Made by a program: the position numbers and the translations under genes
Part shown: positions 48,658 through 57,755 of the stretch, one piece after another
Layout: each line of letters opens with the position of its first letter
How positions within the stretch are numbered: the stretch's first letter is position 1
NCBI GenBank assembly: GCA_030529235.1
Contig: JAUMXF010000002.1
Location: 1 to 59,248 of the forward strand
Source of the DNA: Pseudomonadota bacterium
GTDB taxonomy: Bacteria; Desulfobacterota; Desulfovibrionia; Desulfovibrionales; Desulfomicrobiaceae
Length of the DNA stretch: 59,248 nucleotides
Direction: 5' to 3'
The notes under the pieces: generated by a model
Database searches by the model: none
What the model saw: only the letters and a program-made list of their open reading frames with translations
Told to the model about the DNA's origin: nothing

Positions 48658-49410
48658 ATGGCGCGCATTCGTCTGACTGTGGCCTATGTGGGCACCCGCT
48701 ACCACGGCTGGCAGATTCAGAAAAACGGTCCGAGTATTCAGGAAGCATTGGAGACGCGGATTTCACGCATCTGCGGCGTGCCCGTACGCGTGCACGGATC
48801 CGGCCGGACCGACGCCGGGGTCCACGCCACGGGGCAGGTGGCGCACTTCGACGCCCCGGATGGCACTGCCATCCCTTGGCAAAAGGCGCTCAATTCCATG
48901 CTTCCCGAAGATATCGCCATTGTCGATGCGCGGGCTGCCGGGGCTGAGTTCCACGCCCGGTTTTCCGCAGTATCCAAACGCTACGCCTACACACTGTGGA
49001 CCGACTCCCGGTTCGTCCTGCCCCAGCGGGCCCCTTTCATCTGGTCTGTGCGCGGCCTGAATCTGGAAGCGATGGATCGTGCCGCCGCGCTTCTGGCCGG
49101 AACGCACGACTTTGCCTCCTTTCAGAACGCGGGAACGGAACTTAAGACCACCATCCGCACGTTGGAACCGATCATTCGTGTCCCGGGCCTCTGTTCGGGA
49201 GAATGGGTGCTGCGTTTTCAGGCTGACGGTTTTTTGAAGCAGATGGTCCGGAATCTGACCGCATTTCTGGTGGAGGTAGGACGTGGCAGGCTCTGCCCTG
49301 AAGACGGACCACGCCTTCTTCAGACCCGCGACCGCAGGCTGGCTCCGGCCACGGCTCCGCCGCAGGGGCTGTGTCTGGAGGAAGTTTTTTACGGAGAGCA
49401 GCCAGTCTGA
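48658..49410 (+). CDS. truA: tRNA pseudouridine(38-40) synthase
   Basis: GWQ.Q, SGRTDAGVHA, FHARF, GTHDF and FLKQMVR motifs. Confidence 0.95.
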   Translation: MARIRLTVAYVGTRYHGWQIQKNGPSIQEALETRISRICGVPVRVHGSGRTDAGVHATGQVAHFDAPDGTAIPWQKALNSMLPEDIAIVDARAAGAEFHARFSAVSKRYAYTLWTDSRFVLPQRAPFIWSVRGLNLEAMDRAAALLAGTHDFASFQNAGTELKTTIRTLEPIIRVPGLCSGEWVLRFQADGFLKQMVRNLTAFLVEVGRGRLCPEDGPRLLQTRDRRLAPATAPPQGLCLEEVFYGEQPV

Positions 49411-49518
49411 CCACACTGGAAAAGGTCGCTGGGGAATATTACGGCAGGAGAACTGAATACCCGCGCCAGTAAACTCCTTCCATGGCCGGGCATCCCGGTA
49501 TGGAAGCGTTCCGGGTGG

Positions 49519-49544
49519 CCGGGCGGGGCTTTCGCCCCGTCCGG
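49519..49544. terminator. Hairpin between convergent truA and the ThiY-like gene (possible terminator)
   Basis: CCGGGCGGGGC-TTTC-GCCCCGTCCGG, with a GAAA loop on the minus strand and only a weak U tail. Confidence 0.5.
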
Positions 49545-49555
49545 ATTTTCCGGGA

Positions 49556-50488
49556 TCAGGGCAGTTCCACCGCCCACGTGTCCAAAGGTGGGACACTCTT
49601 TACGATGCCTTCCTTCTTCAGGAATTCGGCGAAGCGGGTGTAGCGGTTTTTGTCCAGCGCTCCGGGGCGCAGGGCGAAGCGCGGCAGAGTGTCCTTCCAG
49701 GCCCGGCGGTTCAGCTCGTCATCCAGGTTTTCCCGGCCGTTACTCACGAAAAGCTTCCATGACTCTTCCGGGTGATTAACCAGATACTGCACGCCTTCTT
49801 CCAGAGCATCCACAAATTTGCGCAGCTTTGGGTCCCTCATCTTTTGGGAGCTGGCCACCAGAATCAGCTCGTCATAGGCCGGAACGCCGTGCTCCTCCAC
49901 GAAAAAGGCCCTCCCCGGCCGCTTCTCGATATCCATCTGATTCAGCTCGAAATTGCGGAATGCGCCGATGACCGCATTCGTCTGGCCGGTGAAAAGGGAC
50001 GGCGACAGAGAAAAATTGACGTTGACCAGTTTCACGTCATCCAGCCCGAGCCCTTCCTGGGCCAGCATCACCTTGAGCAGAGCGGTTTCAAAGCCGCCCA
50101 CAGAGTAGCCGATGGTCTTGCCCTTCAGGTCGGCGATGGATTTGACCGGGCCATCCGCCAGCACCACCAGAGAGTTGAGCGGTGTGGCTATCAGCGTGGC
50201 GATGCGGGTCAGGGGAAGCCCCTCGGCCACCTGCATCTGATGCTGATGCTGGTAGGATACGGCCAGATCGGCCTTGCCTGCGGCCACAAGCTTCGGCGGG
50301 TCGTTGGGATTGGAAGGGGCGACAAACTCCACGTCCAGTCCTCTGGCCTTGAAGAAGCCTTTTTCCTGGGCCACAAAAAGGGGGGCATGGTCCGGGTTGA
50401 TGAACCAGTCCAGAAGAACGGTCATTTTTTCGGCTTGGGCCGAGGAGGAGAAAAAAATCAGAGCGGACAAAAGCAGAAATTTTTTCAT
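49556..50488 (-). CDS. NMT1/THI5-family ABC transporter substrate-binding protein (ThiY-like, thiamine-precursor uptake)
   Basis: Signal peptide, LDWFINPDHAP, A.EKG.F..GLDV, GAFRNFE and GVPAYDEL motifs. Confidence 0.85.
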   Translation of the reverse strand: MKKFLLLSALIFFSSSAQAEKMTVLLDWFINPDHAPLFVAQEKGFFKARGLDVEFVAPSNPNDPPKLVAAGKADLAVSYQHQHQMQVAEGLPLTRIATLIATPLNSLVVLADGPVKSIADLKGKTIGYSVGGFETALLKVMLAQEGLGLDDVKLVNVNFSLSPSLFTGQTNAVIGAFRNFELNQMDIEKRPGRAFFVEEHGVPAYDELILVASSQKMRDPKLRKFVDALEEGVQYLVNHPEESWKLFVSNGRENLDDELNRRAWKDTLPRFALRPGALDKNRYTRFAEFLKKEGIVKSVPPLDTWAVELP

Positions 50489-50588
50489 GAAAGCCTCGTC
50501 GGTTGGGTGATAAAAAAGGTTACAGTCTGAAAATGTTCCGGCAGCATTTGTTGTTTCCCCAGAGTCAGGAGGTTTCCTCGATCGGAGT

Positions 50589-51041
50589 TTACCCGAGCGT
50601 GTTCCTGTTGATGACGCGCAGATAGCCGATGCGCTGGACAAAGAAGCGGAGTTTCGCGGCAAGTCCCATATTGATGTACATGGTGCCACCCTCTCCGAAA
50701 CCGCTTTGCACGCGGTCACAGAAGGATTCCACAAATTTGAGCCATGCACGCTGGTCCTTGAGCAGCAGTTCCGCCAGGTGCGGGTCTCTGTTTTTCAGGT
50801 TGCGCATGGTTTCCCTGTAGGCCGCGTTCAGGAGCACATCGATCTCGGCCAGGCCATTTTCCAGCACCTCCATTGCGCCCACGCGTCCCATGGATATTTT
50901 GGCTTCTTCGCTGGCTTTGAAAGTGTCTTCCATGAGGGCGACGGCTTTTTTCTCCATTTCGGAAAGAGAATGGCGTTCTTCAGCAAAAGCCGTGGATGAA
51001 AAGAGCAGCAGTAAAAGCAACACGGTGGGATGCACGCGCAT
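50589..51041 (-). CDS. Secreted LprI/DUF1311-family protein
   Basis: Signal peptide ending AFA, and D..LN.AY..L...QRAWLKF...C motif. AAGGAG RBS. Confidence 0.75.
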   Translation of the reverse strand: MRVHPTVLLLLLLFSSTAFAEERHSLSEMEKKAVALMEDTFKASEEAKISMGRVGAMEVLENGLAEIDVLLNAAYRETMRNLKNRDPHLAELLLKDQRAWLKFVESFCDRVQSGFGEGGTMYINMGLAAKLRFFVQRIGYLRVINRNTLG

Positions 51042-51189
51042 AATGACTCTCCTTGACGGCCTGTGCGGTGGAAGCTGACGGCTCGAATCGGGGCTGCCTG
51101 AGGCAGGATACTTAGCGGCGGCTACACTGAAAATCCAGGTCAATTTTAGGCTGCCTGTGTCCCGGCCATTGACAGGATCGGCAAAGTAA

Positions 51190-51295
51190 GATTAGTCAAA
51201 GTTTAATTATTAGCTTTGGCTAACTATTTTTCTAAAAATCATCCTATAATTTTCTATTGTTATATAATTTTATTGAAAATAATCATAAAATTGAA
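51190..51295 (+). promoter_or_regulatory. AT-rich promoter/operator region with DtxR/MntR-like and Fur-like palindromes
   Basis: TTAG-CTTTGG-CTAA at 51210-51223 with an inverted partial copy TTAGTCAAAG at 51192-51201. TGAAAAT-A-ATCATAA at 51274-51288 sits inside AATTTTAT-N11-ATAAAATT. Two TATAAT boxes (51245, 51263) and TTGACA at 51169. Confidence 0.55.
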
Positions 51296-51312
51296 AGTTT
51301 CTGGAGGTAGCC

Positions 51313-51567
51313 ATGTTTAAACTGGATAACGGGTCTGAGCTGTTTTCGTCACAGGTCATGCAGCGGTTGCGCAAGGCGGCCGGTGGAGTCATGGGTTCTC
51401 GTCCGTGGGTGGAAGGTTCCGGTGGCGAGGCAGCCCATGCTTCGGGCTGTTCCGGGGACGGAGCGTGTTCCTGTAAGGTCAAATGCGCCCGCTGCCGTTG
51501 CGCCATGCGGGCCGCCGGAAAGAATGAGGAGGCCGGGGAGGTGACGCATGGATCGTCCGGGGAATGA
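51313..51567 (+). CDS. Small Cys-rich hypothetical protein (84 aa)
   Basis: RBS GGAGGT with 4 nt to the ATG. Six Cys clustered in CSGDGACSCKVKCARCRC. Confidence 0.6.
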   Translation: MFKLDNGSELFSSQVMQRLRKAAGGVMGSRPWVEGSGGEAAHASGCSGDGACSCKVKCARCRCAMRAAGKNEEAGEVTHGSSGE

Positions 51568-51760
51568 ATCCCTGCGGATTGAGCTCTCCGCCGCGACCCT
51601 GACCCGGCTTCTGGCCGCCGGGCATCTGGGCGCGGCCGAGTTGCGCTGCCTGGACTGCGCATCGAAAGCGTGTCTGCGCCGGTTGTGTCTGGCCAGTTGC
51701 GTCCGGCCGTTTTCCGGATGCACGGGGTGCCCGTACAGCGCCGGAAAGAAGGACGCGTAG
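51548..51760 (+). CDS. Small Cys-rich hypothetical protein (70 aa)
   Basis: RBS GGAGGTG before the ATG. IELS..L.RLL..G.L.AA..RCLDC.SK.CL..LC..C pattern with 7 Cys. Followed by a terminator. Confidence 0.7.
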   Translation: MDRPGNESLRIELSAATLTRLLAAGHLGAAELRCLDCASKACLRRLCLASCVRPFSGCTGCPYSAGKKDA

Positions 51761-51781
51761 CGCGCGGGCGGTTTCATGCGG

Positions 51782-51824
51782 CGGGCCGTATCTCCCAAAG
51801 AGGAGGTGCGGCCCGTTTGATTTT
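51782..51824 (+). terminator. Intrinsic terminator of the Cys-rich mini-operon
   Basis: 14-bp stem CGGGCCGTATCTCC/GGAGGTGCGGCCCG with two G-U pairs that form only on the + strand RNA, followed by TTTGATTTT. Confidence 0.72.
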
Positions 51825-52615
51825 CAATACAGATAGGGACTGGCTGGCGGGTCCACGTTTGTCATCCGGGTCACCCGGATCAGCGGAACGGTCTTGTCTT
51901 CATGGGGCAGCAGTTCAAAGGTGCCTTCGACCCGCACCCACTGTTCCGGCGGCAGCTCCGGAGTTTCCTTCATATCCAGAGCCACGGTCAGGGGCATGGC
52001 GTCCGCCGCGCAGCAGGTGATCAGAAAGCGGTACAGAGCCACGGTGCGGCCGGTCCCGAAATAGCGTTCCAGATCGGGATTGCGGTACAACAGGCCGAGC
52101 AGGGTCACTTCCTTGCCCGCGTATTCCCCCGGTGAACGCAGCAGGTCGAGGGCCGTAAGCGGTTCATCCGGATTGGGGAGCGGCTCCAGACCCGCATTGG
52201 CGAAGGCTTCGCTGATGGCCCGGTCCGATACCGCATCGGGCGTGTGCGTGGAAGAATCCGGGAAGGATTGTCCGCTGAAGCCTTCCTCCGTGCCGACATC
52301 CACACCCAGAAACCGGTTGGCGAAGACATCTTCTCCCAGAATGGAATCCGTCACGGCCATGTGCAGCAGGGGCAGCAGCAGAATCATGGCGCGCAGAAAG
52401 GGCACGGGCGCGGGACGTCTGATGCCGGTGAACATGAAGGCCAGGGCGATGGCCGCTCCCATGCCCAGCAGCCAGGAGAATTCGGGGCGCAGAAACAGCC
52501 GGATGCGGCTTGTGCCAAGAATCATGACCAGGGCCACACTCCAGGCTGTGAAGACAAAACCGGCCGTGAGTCTTCCGCTTATGCATGCGTTTTTGAGTCG
52601 TGCAAGGGGCGTCAC
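51824..52615 (-). CDS. TIGR03943/DUF1980 (YcgQ-like) permease-associated protein
   Basis: Three N-terminal TM segments, RFLITCCAADA, WV.VEG and P..PYLY C-terminus. GTGA overlap with the upstream permease. Confidence 0.85.
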   Translation of the reverse strand: MTPLARLKNACISGRLTAGFVFTAWSVALVMILGTSRIRLFLRPEFSWLLGMGAAIALAFMFTGIRRPAPVPFLRAMILLLPLLHMAVTDSILGEDVFANRFLGVDVGTEEGFSGQSFPDSSTHTPDAVSDRAISEAFANAGLEPLPNPDEPLTALDLLRSPGEYAGKEVTLLGLLYRNPDLERYFGTGRTVALYRFLITCCAADAMPLTVALDMKETPELPPEQWVRVEGTFELLPHEDKTVPLIRVTRMTNVDPPASPYLY

Positions 52616-53682
52616 GACCAGCCCTCCAGCATCAGAAGGCTCATGGACGCGCCCACCGTCAGCAGAAGAACCAGTCCCGCCAGGGCCACAATGACCCGTC
52701 TGCGGAAAACAGCCTGATACATGAGCAGCAGCTTCAGGTCGAACATGGGGCCCGTGAGCATGAAGGCCATTTGCGCGGCCAAAGGCATGAGTCCGGAAAA
52801 GGACGCGGCGATGAAGGCGTCGGATTCAGAGCAAAGATTCAGGGCCACGGCCAGCGCCGTCATGGCCAGAATGGACAGGGCGGGCAGGGACGCCAGCCCG
52901 AGCAGCAGGGATCTGTCCACAAAGGTCTGGGCCACGGCGGCCACGAATGCGCCGACGATCAGGTATTGAGCCACGCCCAGAAAGTCGGCGGCACCGTGGC
53001 GCAGCGCCTGTCCCAGCCGGGAGGTGAAGGACGGCCGGACCACGGCGTTCGTGACCTGCGGGAAGTGCGGCAAGGGGACCTCGCATCCGCAGGAGCAGGG
53101 CTGGGGCGCGATGTGCTCCAGTCCGCCGTGCAGAGCACTTTTGTCCGGAAACAGGCGATTCAGCACAAGAGCCGCGGTCACGGCGACGGCATAGCCCAGA
53201 CCCAGGCGTATCGCCATGACTTTCCATTCAAAACCGTAAGCCAGAGCCGTGGATGCGGCGACGATGGGGTTCACGATGGGGCCGGCCAGCAGATAGGCGA
53301 TGCCGGCCCCGAAGGGTAGTCCTTTGCCGAGAAGCCTGCGTACGACCGGCACCACTGCGCATTCGCAGACCGGAAAGACGACACCGAGCCCGGCGGCGAC
53401 GCAGATGGCGGTCAGCCCCCGTCTGGGCAGCAGGGCGGCCATGCGTTCCCGGCTGACGAAGGCTTCGATGAGCCCCCCCGCCAGAGCGCCGAGCAGCATG
53501 AAGGGCAGGGCCTCCAGCACGATGCTGGTGAACATGATGGACAGGGTGCGGTATGGCCCGGAGGCCGCTCCCACGGGCAGGACCAGAAGCCCGGCAAAGA
53601 TGAAGATCACTGCGGCCACGGCGCGGAAAGTGCCGCCAGCCGGGGTGCCCGCATGAGATATTGTCGAAGTGGCATGTGACAT
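52612..53682 (-). CDS. DUF318 (YcgR/ArsP-like) permease, probable metal uptake
   Basis: EALPF, FPVCEC..VP, P..NP, LCSESDAF and GPMFDLK motifs, with a central CSCGC loop. The start is uncertain. Confidence 0.87.
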   Translation of the reverse strand: MSHATSTISHAGTPAGGTFRAVAAVIFIFAGLLVLPVGAASGPYRTLSIMFTSIVLEALPFMLLGALAGGLIEAFVSRERMAALLPRRGLTAICVAAGLGVVFPVCECAVVPVVRRLLGKGLPFGAGIAYLLAGPIVNPIVAASTALAYGFEWKVMAIRLGLGYAVAVTAALVLNRLFPDKSALHGGLEHIAPQPCSCGCEVPLPHFPQVTNAVVRPSFTSRLGQALRHGAADFLGVAQYLIVGAFVAAVAQTFVDRSLLLGLASLPALSILAMTALAVALNLCSESDAFIAASFSGLMPLAAQMAFMLTGPMFDLKLLLMYQAVFRRRVIVALAGLVLLLTVGASMSLLMLEGWS

Positions 53683-53842
53683 GGGCGGCTGCTTGGCACG
53701 CCCGTTTCCGGGGGTCAAGCCGGAGGCGGGCCGCTTTGAAGCCTTTGGGGCGGAAAAAACTTTTCTTGGCGGGCAAGATGGTCTAAAGAAATGCGGATTT
53801 TGCGGTGCCGCGAAGCCCTCTCACCACAGACAAGGATTACGC

Positions 53843-55516
53843 ATGGTTAACATCCTCATCCAGACTCTCGGCGGCCTCGGTCTTTTTGTGCTGGGCATGA
53901 AACTCATGACCGAAGGCTTGCAGATGGCCGCGGGCAACCGCATCCGCAACATTCTGAAAGCCGTCTCCGACAACCGTCTGGTGGGGTTCGCCACGGGCGC
54001 GGCGGTCACGGCCATGGTCCAGTCCTCCTCGGCCACCACGGTCATGCTGATCAGCTTTGTCAGCGCCGGGCTCATGACCCTGACCCAGGCCGTCGGCGTC
54101 ATTCTGGGGTGCAACGTGGGCACGACCATGACGGCCCAGCTCATCGCCTTCAAACTTTCTGATCTGGCCCTGCCGGCCATCGCCATCGGGGTGCCGCTCA
54201 ATTATTTCGGCACGCGCAAGAAATATCGCTACCTTGGTGAAATCATTCTCGGATTCGGTCTGCTTTTCTTCGGAATGACCGTCATGGGCGACGGCCTCAA
54301 GCCCCTGCGCTCCGATCCGGCCTTCATCTCGTTCTTCACCAGATTCGATGCCTCCACTGTGGGCGGCCTGCTGCTGTGTGTGGCCACGGGCGCCGGCCTG
54401 ACCATCGTGGTGCAGTCGTCTTCGGCCACCATCGGCCTGACCATGGCCTTCGCCACCCAGGGGCTGATAGGATTCCCGGCGGCCATGGCCCTCATCCTGG
54501 GAGAAAACATCGGCACCACCATCACCGCCGAGCTTGCCACCATCGGTTCCGCCAATATCAGCGCCTACCGTGCGGCCAGGGCGCACACCATGTTCAACGT
54601 GTTCGGCGTGTGCATGATGCTGCTCATTTTTCCATGGTTCCTGCGGAGCATCGAGTGGGTCACCCTCATGATGACCGGAGGACATGCCTGGGATGTGCAG
54701 GCCGGTGGGGAGTATCCGTACATAGCCCGCTATCTGGCCAACGGGCATACGCTGTTCAACCTTGTGAACGCCCTGATTTTCCTTGTTTTTCTCCCCTTTC
54801 TGATCAGGGTCGCGATTCTTTTGTCTCCCAGAGACAGAAACGAGGGAGATGAGCTGTTCCGCCTGCCGGTTTTCGAGCCCAATGCGGAGGACAACAGCGT
54901 GGCGGCCCTGGCCCGGACCAGGGGCGAGCTGCAACGCATGTCCCGGATTGTGCACGAGGCTTATCTGAATGCTCTGGAATGTCTGGAAAAGCGCGATCAG
55001 CAGACCATCCGCAGACGGCAGCGTTTTGAAAATCATATCGACGAGATGCATAAGCTCATCACCACTTTTCTGGCCAAAATCATGCAGACCGGGCTCAATG
55101 AAGAGGATTCGGCGGAAATCTCGGCGCAGATGCGGCTGGCCAATACTCTGGAGCGCATCGGCGACGCGGTGGAGGTGCTGGGCCTCCTGTGCGAGGAGAT
55201 TGTGGAGAAGGAGCTCAATTTTTCAGAAGATGCCTGGATCGATTTTTACAATATTTCGGCCAGGGTGGATGAATTTCTGAAAATGACCATGGACGGCCTC
55301 GAGAATGAACCCGAGAATCTGCTGGAAGAGGCGGGCAAGGCCGAGGAGGTCATCGACGCCATGCGGGAGAGAATGCGCGACGCGCATATCGAACGGCTCA
55401 AGGTCGGCAAATGCGGCATCGAGGGCGGGCTTGCCTTCATCAATCTGCTGGCCCGGCTGGAGAAGATCGGCGACCATTGCTACACCATCGCCAGAACCGT
55501 GACCAGAAACCGCTGA
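53843..55516 (+). CDS. Na+/phosphate cotransporter family protein with PhoU-like C-terminal domains
   Basis: GGLGLF..GM, two QSSS repeats, G.N.GTT, and LERIGD/LEKIGDH. AAGGA RBS. Confidence 0.92.
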   Translation: MVNILIQTLGGLGLFVLGMKLMTEGLQMAAGNRIRNILKAVSDNRLVGFATGAAVTAMVQSSSATTVMLISFVSAGLMTLTQAVGVILGCNVGTTMTAQLIAFKLSDLALPAIAIGVPLNYFGTRKKYRYLGEIILGFGLLFFGMTVMGDGLKPLRSDPAFISFFTRFDASTVGGLLLCVATGAGLTIVVQSSSATIGLTMAFATQGLIGFPAAMALILGENIGTTITAELATIGSANISAYRAARAHTMFNVFGVCMMLLIFPWFLRSIEWVTLMMTGGHAWDVQAGGEYPYIARYLANGHTLFNLVNALIFLVFLPFLIRVAILLSPRDRNEGDELFRLPVFEPNAEDNSVAALARTRGELQRMSRIVHEAYLNALECLEKRDQQTIRRRQRFENHIDEMHKLITTFLAKIMQTGLNEEDSAEISAQMRLANTLERIGDAVEVLGLLCEEIVEKELNFSEDAWIDFYNISARVDEFLKMTMDGLENEPENLLEEAGKAEEVIDAMRERMRDAHIERLKVGKCGIEGGLAFINLLARLEKIGDHCYTIARTVTRNR

Positions 55517-55538
55517 GGTACAGGCCGCGCGGCATATC

Positions 55539-55574
55539 GCCCCACCCCGGCATATTCCGGGGCGGGGCTTTTTT
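55539..55574 (+). terminator. Intrinsic terminator after the Na/Pi cotransporter
   Basis: GCCCCACCCCGG-CATATT-CCGGGGCGGGGC followed by T6. Confidence 0.8.
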
Positions 55575-55769
55575 GCGCCGTTTTCCGGGTGAGCCCGATC
55601 CCGCGGGCGGCGCGGCACTGTGCCGGAGTCTTTGAGCCAAGGCCCTTGCATCCGCGCGGCAGGACGGGTATTTTCCTTCGGAACCTCTCCCTGACTTCAG
55701 TTTCATGGCCGGGTTGTGTTTCTCCATATTTACGGCCGGGAAGCCATCCGAACCGGAGAGGGAGGGCTT

Positions 55770-57755
55770 GTGATTCTGCCGTTTTTTTCCTCCATCCGCC
55801 GCAATCTGGCCCTGCTGGTCCTCGTGTCCATGGCGCCGGCTCTGGTCATTGTGCTTTTCACCGGACGCGCTCTGCATGAGGCCATGGTCCGCAGCGCCGA
55901 AAACGCCGCTCTGCGCCAGATCCAGGCCATGTCCGCACACCACGAGCATGTGGTGGACAGCGCCCGGCTGCTGCTGGCCACCCTGGCCAAATCACGGGAG
56001 GTGCGGCTGGGCTCCCCGCGTGAAGCGCAGCAGCTGCTCGAAGAAATACTTGCCCGCAACGGGGCCTACTGCGCTCTGGCTCTGGCCGACGCCGCGGGCC
56101 GTATCGTGGCCGTCTCGCCGCCGGGCTCTCTCTCCAGCATCGAAAATGAAGGCTATTTTCAGGAATCCGTGGCCGGAATGCGTTTTACCATGGGCGCGTA
56201 TCATCTGGCTCCCGGTCCTTCCCGCCGCGTGGTCATCGAATTCGCACAGCCCGTGTCCGCTCCGGATGGTTCTGTGCACGGCGTGCTCGTGGCTTCTTTT
56301 GATCTGAATTATTTCGGCCGTGTTTTCGCCGACGCACATCTGCCGGAAGGTTCGGTTTTCACTCTGACCGATGCAGCGGGTATGCGTCTGACCCGCTTTC
56401 CGGAAACGGAAAAATACACTTGGGTGCCGGATTTGCCGCAGATGATCGAGCGCATGTCCGGAGAGCGGGCCGAAGGGGTTTTTCTGGAAACCGGCGTGGA
56501 CGGCGTGCGCAGGCTTTACAGCTTCAAGCGCATGTATTTCATGGACACGCCTTCGCGGCATCTGATGATCCGTCTCGGACAGCCGGAGGACCTGGCCCTG
56601 GCCAAGGCCCGGAGCGCCGTTTACCGGAATGCCGTGCTGCTCGCTCTGGCTGCCGTGCTGGCCGCGATCGGGGCCTGGTTCGTGGGGGAATTCATCATCA
56701 TGCGCCGGGTGAACCGCCTGATGGCGGCTGCCGACCGTCTGGGTTCCGGAGATCTGGGCACGCGCACCGGCCTCGAGCGCGAAGGCGGAGAGATGGGGCG
56801 GCTGGCTGCGGCCTTCAACCGCATGGCCGAAAGTCTGGAGGATCAGGACCGGGAGCGCCGCCGCGCCGAGGAGGAACTCTGCATTCTGAATACGGAGCTG
56901 GAGGACCGCGTGTCCCGGCGTACGGGCGAACTGGCCAGGGCCAACGCGGAACTGCAGGCCGCTCTGGACGATCTGAGGCAGGCCCAGAGCCAGCTGGTCA
57001 TGGCCGAGAAGCTGGCGGCTCTGGGCGGGCTGGTGGCCGGTGTGGCTCACGAGATCAATACGCCTGTGGGCGTGGCGCTTTCGGCCTCTTCCACCCTGGC
57101 CGAGAAGACCCGGAACATCCGCGAGCTGTTCGAGACCGGCGGGATGAGGCGTTCGGATCTGACGGCGTATCTGGATTCCGCCCGGGAGGGGGTGGAGATG
57201 GGCGTTTTGAATCTGCACCGGGCCTCGGAGCTGATCCGCAGCTTCAAGATGGTGGCGGCGGATCAGGTTTCGGAGGTCCGGCGGCGGTTCATGGTGCGGG
57301 AATATGTGGAGGAAATCCTGCTCAGTCTGCGCCCCAAGCTCAAGAAGACCGCTCTCCGGGTGGAGGTGGAATGCGACGCGGAGCTGTGCATCGACAGCTA
57401 TCCCGGAGCGTTCTCGCAGATTCTGACCAATTTCGTGATCAATTCCCTGACCCACGCCTTTGACGAGGGACAGGCCGGGGTGATCCGCATTGCCGTGAGG
57501 ATGGACGGGGCCGCGCTGGTCCTCAGCTATTCCGATGACGGGCGGGGCATTCCGCCCGAGGCGCAGGACAAGATTTTCGATCCCTTCTATACATCGGCCC
57601 GGTCCAGAGGCTCCACCGGACTGGGGCTGCATATCGTGTTCAACGTCGTCACCCGCACCCTGAACGGCTCCGTGACCTGCTGCAGCGAGCCCGGCCGTGG
57701 AACCACGTTTGTGGTGCGTTTCCCCTGCGAAGAGGCCGGTCATGACGGACAGTGA
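55770..57755 (+). CDS. Sensor histidine kinase (dCache-HAMP-HisKA-HATPase)
   Basis: Two TM segments, HAMP, EKLAALGGLVAGVAHEINTP, NS..HAF, DDGRGI and GLGL. GTG start follows GGAGG. Confidence 0.92.
   Translation: MILPFFSSIRRNLALLVLVSMAPALVIVLFTGRALHEAMVRSAENAALRQIQAMSAHHEHVVDSARLLLATLAKSREVRLGSPREAQQLLEEILARNGAYCALALADAAGRIVAVSPPGSLSSIENEGYFQESVAGMRFTMGAYHLAPGPSRRVVIEFAQPVSAPDGSVHGVLVASFDLNYFGRVFADAHLPEGSVFTLTDAAGMRLTRFPETEKYTWVPDLPQMIERMSGERAEGVFLETGVDGVRRLYSFKRMYFMDTPSRHLMIRLGQPEDLALAKARSAVYRNAVLLALAAVLAAIGAWFVGEFIIMRRVNRLMAAADRLGSGDLGTRTGLEREGGEMGRLAAAFNRMAESLEDQDRERRRAEEELCILNTELEDRVSRRTGELARANAELQAALDDLRQAQSQLVMAEKLAALGGLVAGVAHEINTPVGVALSASSTLAEKTRNIRELFETGGMRRSDLTAYLDSAREGVEMGVLNLHRASELIRSFKMVAADQVSEVRRRFMVREYVEEILLSLRPKLKKTALRVEVECDAELCIDSYPGAFSQILTNFVINSLTHAFDEGQAGVIRIAVRMDGAALVLSYSDDGRGIPPEAQDKIFDPFYTSARSRGSTGLGLHIVFNVVTRTLNGSVTCCSEPGRGTTFVVRFPCEEAGHDGQ

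Follow-up and report, generated by a model that had tools for sequence, protein, structure and literature searches.

Two overlapping genes for cysteine-rich small proteins follow an AT-rich tract

The window analysed here is a stretch of 59,248 nucleotides from contig JAUMXF010000002.1 (assembly GCA_030529235.1, family Desulfomicrobiaceae). On its plus strand, ORF1 (51313..51567) encodes 84 amino acids with cysteines at positions 46, 52, 54, 58, 61 and 63, and ORF2 (51548..51760), which overlaps it by 20 nt, encodes 70 amino acids with cysteines at positions 34, 37, 42, 47, 51, 58 and 61. Both have a GGAGGT ribosome-binding site on the same strand, that of ORF1 at 51303..51308, 4 nt before the ATG, and that of ORF2 at 51537..51542, inside ORF1 and 5 nt before its own ATG. 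By eye, neither product has a hydrophobic stretch at its N-terminus. The tract ahead of the pair (51185-51305) has a GC content of 19.8%, compared with 60.5% for the whole window. Overlapping frames, ribosome-binding sites, 6 and 7 cysteines and the AT-rich tract are all present as the initial annotation of this locus had described them.

That annotation also proposed a promoter region and a strand-specific terminator of 14 bp, and both proposals hold in part. A putative -35 hexamer, TTGACA, lies at 51169..51174 (plus strand), upstream of the first operator described below, and by eye it is kept in 8/8 stand-alone orthologous promoters; no -10 partner for it was identified in the host genome, and no plus-strand sigma-70 promoter in this region of the window passed a consensus scan. 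Downstream of ORF2, an intrinsic-terminator-like hairpin with a U-rich tail spans 51780..51825 on the plus strand. The hairpin itself (51780-51817) has 16 pairs including G-U pairs, rather than 14 bp, and its strand specificity stands: the fold reaches -31 kcal/mol on the plus strand (z -6.3) compared with -21.5 on the minus strand, and the U-rich tail is found on the plus strand only. The resulting 3' UTR is 63 nt long and contains one GGA, and no Rfam match was found within 49000-56000. Four runs of a single feline metatranscriptome study contain five RNA contigs that fall inside 51306-51770, one of them spanning both ORFs; these runs were chosen with this stretch, are strandless and may contain DNA. 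Two further runs, DNA-like in look, cover the whole region in the same arrangement. These contigs give a weak hint of a single mRNA carrying both ORFs to the terminator. An inverted repeat at 51192-51223 was considered as an RNA terminator or attenuator and rejected: it folds here, but the genus genome G017 has lost the pairing and kept the operator.

On the minus strand at 49556-51143, genes for an LprI-like secreted protein and an NMT1/THI5 binding protein are transcribed away from the operator, and Rfam revealed no riboswitch near them. On the other side of the pair, a convergent DUF1980 (YcgQ-like) and ArsP_1 permease pair (51824..53718, minus strand) lies outside the module. Profile matches to DUF1980_C/TIGR03943 and ArsP_1 bear out its earlier identification as a YcgQ-like/permease pair. 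The further proposal, that it forms a metal-homeostasis islet with ORF1 and ORF2, is not supported: the permease adjoins ORF2 in 3/12 ORF2-bearing genus genomes (the host genome G000, G017 and G007), is found in 4/25 genus genomes, and has no operator-like site upstream, the best match having 3 mismatches. The permease is a local neighbour only.

Both genes are under purifying selection and belong to the accessory genome

Across 45 pairs from 10 genomes, mean pN/pS was 0.19 for the ORF1 core (32 codons) and 0.31 for the ORF2 core (42 codons), values that are uncorrected proportions among related genomes. Between the host genome and G017, pN/pS was 0.24 for ORF1 and 0.05 for ORF2. By this measure, which answers the dN/dS-type check suggested with the initial annotation, both ORFs are real genes under purifying selection in Desulfomicrobium.

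ORF2 is present in 16/61 related genomes (11/24 genus relatives) and in 5/301 genomes of the phylum, and ORF1 lies directly upstream of it in 12/12 ORF2-bearing genus genomes. ORF1 occurs without ORF2 in G002, G011 and G015 and as three paralogues, and ORF2 occurs without ORF1 outside the genus. Because of this patchy distribution, we consider both genes accessory.

ORF2 belongs to an unnamed family related to PA4570

Neither ORF1 nor ORF2 has a Pfam match. A 16-sequence ORF2 profile retrieved at least 759 clusters at 50% identity, in which 'hypothetical protein' was the sole name met, and our genome scan yielded 59 ORF2 loci, 7 of them Desulfomicrobium-like, 18 from other Desulfobacterota or unassigned, 14 from Shewanella and 20 from other Gammaproteobacteria, by our own assignment based on the titles and content of the records. 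Judged from these sequences, ORF2 represents an unnamed family of Desulfobacterota and Gammaproteobacteria. Pfam searches of the 59 relatives gave scattered weak matches and nothing more.

Its predicted structure consists of three helices (residues 15-24, 29-33 and 37-52; pLDDT 70.7, pTM 0.40), with C47 and C51 one helical turn apart. The core (residues 10-51) holds the conserved cysteines and is followed by a variable tail. Conservation across 111 non-redundant relatives is 98% for C34, 92% for C51, 80% for C47, 62% for C42 and 51% for C37; position 28, a glycine here, is cysteine in 80%, and the tail contains 0-1 cysteines in 72/111. A PDB sequence search returned nothing, Foldseek gave nothing at E<=0.001 with the ORF2 model (best VIA Z 3.4), and the ESM Atlas offered, as a lead, unnamed clusters at 0.80-0.85. 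These null fold searches indicate neither a new nor a different fold.

A relationship emerged at the profile level. When the ORF2 family was compared with an alignment of PA4570-like proteins, built from the 13 best matches from 250 genomes, one of which passes the family cut-off, hhalign gave a probability of 94.6% (E 6.8e-8, 59 columns, from residue 22 on). ORF2 itself scores 16.3 bits (E 0.009) against the PA4570 family model NF050178, whose cut-off is 100 bits; the model is matched by 41/59 ORF2 relatives (best E 4.4e-6), and in searches of two whole genomes its sole match was the ORF2 homologue. ORF2 aligns from position 22-28 of the model on, the N-terminal segment (model 1-22) being absent, and PA4570-family members keep only some of its cysteines. 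Since the C-terminal core matches and the score nevertheless stays below the cut-off, we regard ORF2 as a relative of NF050178 rather than a member, with ORF2 predicted by hhalign (94.6%) to correspond to the C-terminal two-thirds of PA4570. A PA4570-like subgroup (L127-L130, L132, L135, L136, L139) does not have the middle helix, mostly carries a CxxCxxC tail and in some cases has Fur-type boxes.

According to the accessible part of a preprint, pa4570 carries a Fur box and is repressed by iron, and its protein has been detected (bioRxiv 10.64898/2026.09.03.749296), and its mRNA gives rise to the small RNA RsmW (bioRxiv 10.64898/2026.09.03.749296; PMC4950607, in part). By analogy with the proposal for pa4570-rsmW, the transcript described here could matter more as RNA, either by yielding a 3' small RNA or by encoding an RNA-binding protein, and the origin of RsmW and the Arg-rich composition of ORF2 are consistent with such a role. 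The short 3' UTR with its one GGA, the missing Rfam match and the strong selection at the protein level speak against it, as does the fact that ORF2 has no counterpart of the PA4570 N-terminus, on which the comparison with Rsm proteins was based; in the accessible text of PMC4950607, moreover, PA4570 did not complement rsmA. We consider an RNA role a far-fetched explanation.

ORF1 combines a conserved N-terminal motif with a dispensable cysteine tail

Searches with ORF1 gave 82 matches, of which the few named ones are from Desulfomicrobium apart from one Geoalkalibacter label, and its 90% cluster includes a protein named D. orale; this name and the Desulfomicrobium labels of the closest ORF2 loci place the host itself in Desulfomicrobium. 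From these sequences, ORF1 appears to be found almost only in Desulfomicrobium. All near-invariant residues fall within positions 1-32, a cysteine-free N-terminal motif predicted to form a hairpin and a helix (13-26), which is followed by a flexible linker and an optional CxCxxxCxxCxC tail. The structure model has a pLDDT of 64 and a pTM of 0.28, rising to a pLDDT of about 77 over the short hairpin and helix of residues 1-32.

These features bear on the earlier view that the two proteins are metallothionein-like buffers that make up an islet together with the convergent permease. In favour of this view are 6 and 7 cysteines in such short proteins, a tail retained in 44/78 of the ORF1 homologues scored, and a permease adjacent in three genomes. 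The tail, however, is absent from the other 34/78, conservation concentrates in cysteine-free or hydrophobic core residues, no metallothionein Pfam model matches, the permease is rare in the genus, and an operator common to uptake genes (see below) implies shortage. On this evidence the buffer hypothesis is very improbable.

ORF1 paralogues sit after a flavodoxin or short DUF2325 gene and before GGDEF or HD genes, and ORF1 copies directly precede GGDEF/HD genes also at loci whose ORF2 has degenerated or disappeared. At one locus (L184:2336-2557), the ORF2 copy that separates ORF1 from a GGDEF gene is degenerate. In eight sequences from three clusters, the ORF1 motif is fused to the ORF2 core with neither cysteine tail retained. 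A 523-kb contig (L180) carries the fusion in frame, within an operon that reads operator-flavodoxin-ORF1-HD/GGDEF-fusion-GGDEF; the fusion sequences are 86-95% identical and represent a single lineage, and the joining could be an accidental in-frame deletion.

Outside the genus, the ORF1 position is held by a protein of 122-127 amino acids with a STAS-like predicted fold (Atlas TM 0.65) and a similar cysteine tail. The 25-column cysteine tail is the one part that aligns with ORF1 (probability 13%), so that the two may share a common descent. We rejected the idea that ORF1 is itself a STAS domain of ~100 residues, given a conserved part of 32 residues and an alignment confined to the tail. Likewise discarded were ORF1 as the missing N-terminal half of PA4570 (probability 0.2-0.4%) and ORF1 as a duplicate of the start of ORF2, a likeness seen by eye and with MAFFT that 42% of shuffles scored equally well.

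A conserved palindrome predicts a DtxR-type iron regulon

Within the AT-rich tract, the palindrome TTAG-N6-CTAA with AT-rich flanks occupies 51208..51225 and is a predicted DtxR-family repressor site. At 18.5 bits it is the second-best PWM site in the host genome, whose 2.3 Mb contain 7 exact core matches including this one. A degenerate first operator adjoins it at 51190..51207, with the left half (TTAG) intact and the right half decayed, and scores below the PWM threshold. Eight orthologous promoters contain 16 exact sites, two each, compared with a shuffled mean of 0.05 (maximum 2, 2000 shuffles), and the PWM detected 27 sites in 17/28 other Desulfobacterota loci, compared with a shuffled mean of 3.65 (maximum 7). 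No enrichment was seen in 27 gammaproteobacterial loci (7 vs 5.5).

A Fur box of the delta-type consensus WTGAAAATNATTTTCAW was rejected as the main operator. Its weak match at 51273..51289 has 3 mismatches and is not conserved, sites with <=3 mismatches number 47 in the host genome, and the best match in the orthologous promoters of other species has at least 4 mismatches in 8/8 cases.

Of the nine PWM sites of at least 11 bits in the host genome, eight precede recognisable genes and one precedes nothing recognisable. The targets are DUF2325, ORF1, an AraC/P1B-ATPase cluster beside flavodoxin, feoAB, two methyltransferase and TonB-receptor operons, a tetrapyrrole methylase and a DUF1858-hemerythrin gene; neither MntH nor MntABC is among the nine, and the second feoAB of this genome has a 2-mismatch site only. 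Site counts show no enrichment: the host genome has 9 PWM sites, compared with 6-24 after local shuffling, and in five genomes a reversed control is commoner than the exact pattern (8-17 vs 1-6). Several exact sites also precede unrelated genes, and the case for a regulon rests on conservation and target identity. The target classes have a counterpart in Desulfovibrio, for which the accessible part of PMC545781 gives a predicted Fur regulon of feoAB, fld, gdp, hdd, foxR and genYZ, with GGDEF and HD genes among its members. In several loci of the genus (L030:1267-1713, L033, L034, L148, L150, L163), a DUF2325 gene in either a short (about 150 aa) or a long (about 410 aa) form lies behind the operator, and DUF2325 may be the genY(C) of PMC545781. 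A further cluster in the host genome (L105, G000:C114:32-6705) comprises flavodoxin, an AraC regulator, two small genes, a P1B-type ATPase, a 140-aa gene and a long DUF2325 gene with two operators. This cluster may resemble a ferrosome (fez) cluster.

The host genome encodes two DtxR-family and three Fur-family proteins. A DtxR-family gene is present in 23/24 genus relatives and in 16/16 ORF2-bearing genomes, and lies in the same locus in 10/18 Desulfobacterota loci from outside Desulfomicrobium. The genus-wide orthologue, C36 (G000:C36), matches MntR models with a better score than it does actinobacterial DtxR and, as placed by motif, has Asp at the Met10 and Cys at the Cys102 position. In C36 (L036) and its orthologues (L140-L147), a conserved CPRTG...CxxCxxCxxxC C-tail replaces the SH3/FeoA domain and is a possible extra metal or Fe-S sensor. 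The second DtxR-family gene (L110, G000:C148) lies near DUF1858-hemerythrin/PAS, ChuX/HutX and flavodoxin genes. The accessible text of PMC10317159 presents Met10 and Cys102 as the ligands of the IdeR-type iron selectivity rule and describes DtxR proteins of Gram-negative hosts as mostly limited to Mn.

Because of the MntR-like score and the Asp at the Met10 position, Mn as the signal metal stays in play. A regulon of the same anatomy that answers to manganese or zinc would also suit the ZnuA and NicO genes that occur in some ORF2 loci. On the other hand, the targets comprise feoAB, flavodoxin, TonB receptors and hemerythrin, no Mn transporter lies behind any of the top sites, homologues in Gammaproteobacteria lie behind Fur-type boxes, and PA4570 is iron-repressed in the preprint cited above, all of which makes a manganese or zinc signal improbable. 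In Shewanella, a search with a partly assumed core found a Fur-type box no more than 100 nt away from 14/14 homologues (shuffled mean 0.04), and a Fur-type core lies within 1.7 kb in 7/20 other gammaproteobacterial loci. From its position, SO_4819 is likely the S. oneidensis ORF2 homologue; in the accessible part of PMC12442407 it shares the top Fur weight of 14.1 with SO_2366. Taken together, membership of ORF1-ORF2 in an iron-type regulon is well supported, and an operator common to uptake genes points to expression in shortage rather than in excess.

Neighbouring genes suggest links of ORF2 to iron uptake and of ORF1 to GGDEF/HD enzymes

We scanned 104 neighbours from 187 called ORFs, with additional tblastn searches, across loci that are related, so that the following counts are not independent. 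The 18 other Desulfobacterota/unassigned loci hold feoA/feoB in 10, a DtxR-family gene in 10, a STAS-like gene in 14 and DUF2325 or Feo in 16, while the 20 non-Shewanella gammaproteobacterial loci hold ferritin, a TonB receptor, an LbtU porin or imelysin in 11 and a long DUF2325 gene in 9; a few ORF2 loci, some of them at contig ends, are without an iron gene. The resemblance of ORF2 to small proteins ahead of iron-uptake genes, which the initial annotation had put forward, is borne out by these Feo counts, and its view of a genuine two-gene unit connected with metal homeostasis is likewise supported. Ten Desulfobacterota loci (L026:4060-7300, L027, L055-L059, L067, L073, L074) share a cassette of DtxR, a 97-aa protein, long DUF2325, a STAS-like protein with cysteine tail and the ORF2 homologue, often with feoAB; neither its 97-aa nor its STAS-like family matches Pfam or NCBIfam. 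In Shewanella (L089-L104), the ORF2 homologue is flanked on one side by a divergent REC-DUF3369-HD regulator gene and on the other, in conserved synteny, by a 430-aa tyrosine-recombinase-like gene.

With feoA/feoB often just downstream in the distant Desulfobacterota loci and with conserved cysteines, ORF2 could be an accessory subunit of Feo-type import that does a FeoC-like job, protecting or tuning FeoB via an Fe-S cluster, without FeoC homology. A FeoC-like identity had been among the initial suggestions and is not supported, since PF09012 misses both ORFs and all 59 ORF2 relatives and one locus (L029) has a true FeoC beside its ORF2 homologue; searches with the three-helix ORF2 model returned no clear fold match against which to weigh the winged helix of FeoC. 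The scanned gammaproteobacterial loci with ferritin/TonB neighbours gave no feoB match and the genus genes are not beside feoB, so that a Feo subunit without such homology is also unlikely.

The neighbours of ORF1 point elsewhere. A GGDEF gene lies downstream of ORF2 in 9/12 genus genomes, ORF1 copies precede GGDEF/HD genes, the Shewanella homologues are divergent from an HD-domain regulator, and GGDEF/HD genes belong to the predicted Desulfovibrio regulon (PMC545781, in part). The pair, and ORF1 above all, might accordingly regulate c-di-GMP enzymes and link iron shortage to biofilm formation or motility, the copy described here being a remnant after loss of its GGDEF/HD gene. But the host genome has no close GGDEF/HD orthologue (best matches 37-42%) and selection relative to G017 holds nonetheless, and most distant loci are without GGDEF/HD genes. 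We judge control of these enzymes as the main function to be distinctly unlikely.

A working model for the ORF1-ORF2 unit

We favour a reading in which ORF1 and ORF2 form a two-gene unit behind a DtxR-type palindrome, expressed under iron shortage, with ORF2 as a cysteine-liganded metal-sensing adaptor and ORF1 as its genus-specific docking partner, and we rate its chances as even. It starts from the palindrome, which is conserved in the sequence and precedes feoAB, DUF2325, flavodoxin, AraC-gene and TonB-receptor operons. C36 with bound metal would quite probably bind this palindrome and release it when iron falls, taking the role that Fur has in Desulfovibrio; from predicted binding by a DtxR-family protein, expression under iron shortage is likely. 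One mRNA would then span both ORFs to the terminator, as the RNA contigs faintly suggest. The three-helix core of ORF2, probably in a dimer or alongside a partner, may bind Fe(II), Zn or an Fe-S cluster via C34, C47 and C51 and tune an iron-response protein, a step to which we give slightly less than an even chance. More tentatively, the N-terminal motif of ORF1 could act jointly with ORF2 and the GGDEF/HD enzymes encoded downstream in most relatives; the cysteine tail of ORF1 would be an optional metal site common to the STAS-fold protein of distant relatives.

On the strength of the sequence, we thus predict that the two miniproteins are an iron-starvation pair belonging to a DtxR-type iron regulon in Gram-negative sulfate reducers. 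A bolder version, which we find rather doubtful, holds that ORF2 and PA4570 belong to an unrecognised superfamily of iron-starvation metallo-adaptors that stayed in the iron response through a switch of master regulator (Fur in Gammaproteobacteria, DtxR-type in sulfate reducers) and that, in Desulfomicrobium, ORF2 forms with ORF1 a two-part Fe or Fe-S sensor that reports iron status either to c-di-GMP enzymes or to proteins for uptake and storage.

The initial annotation did not contain the PA4570 relationship, the DtxR-type operator and regulon or the natural fusion, and in the literature covered, which lay outside subscription journals and regulon databases such as RegPrecise, we found neither the ORF1/ORF2 proteins nor a Desulfomicrobium iron regulon of the DtxR type described. 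The work gives a widespread unannotated small-protein family a testable identity and a link to PA4570. If SO_4819 is a homologue, the family includes a gene with the top-scoring Fur motif of S. oneidensis and becomes accessible in a tractable host. A further prediction is that in Desulfomicrobium and several other Desulfobacterota the iron regulon is governed by a DtxR-family repressor, a task generally ascribed to Fur in Gram-negative bacteria.

Comparison with known systems

The PA4570 family (NF050178) shares with ORF2 a strand-helix-Gly-helix core, small size, an iron-repressor box upstream and the lack of an assigned function; ORF2 differs in being without the N-terminal 20 residues, in having more conserved cysteines and no RsmW-like 3' RNA, and in lying, in Desulfobacterota, behind a DtxR-type rather than a Fur box. 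Like FeoC (PF09012), ORF2 is small, contains cysteines and lies near feoAB in some loci, but it has no profile match, coexists with FeoC and is often far from feoB. STAS-fold proteins (PF01740/PF13466) are comparable in that the gene at the ORF1 position in distant relatives is STAS-like and ends in CxCxxxCxxCxC, whereas ORF1 has no STAS domain and aligns through the tail alone. Bacterial metallothioneins of the SmtA/BmtA type are likewise short proteins with clustered cysteines; the ORF1 cluster, in contrast, is dispensable, ORF2 has a folded hydrophobic core, and regulation points to shortage.

At the level of regulation, the Desulfovibrio Fur regulon (PMC545781, in its accessible part) has the same target classes, namely Feo, flavodoxin, GGDEF, HD-domain, AraC regulator and small hypothetical proteins, and tandem boxes, but the conserved site here is TTAG-N6-CTAA and not WTGAAAATNATTTTCAW. 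The IdeR consensus TTAGGTTAGSCTAACCTAA, described in the accessible text of PMC10317159 as bound by two dimers, contains TTAG-N6-CTAA twice, at positions 1-14 and 6-19. TTAG-N6-CTAA thus equals one dimer site of the 19-bp box, and a repressor of the family is present, often adjacent; the sites here, however, are single-dimer sites about 110-130 nt apart instead of an overlapped 19-bp box. Compared with DtxR, IdeR and MntR, the system also differs in its Gram-negative host and in a repressor with Asp and Cys at the Met10 and Cys102 positions and a Cys-rich C-tail.
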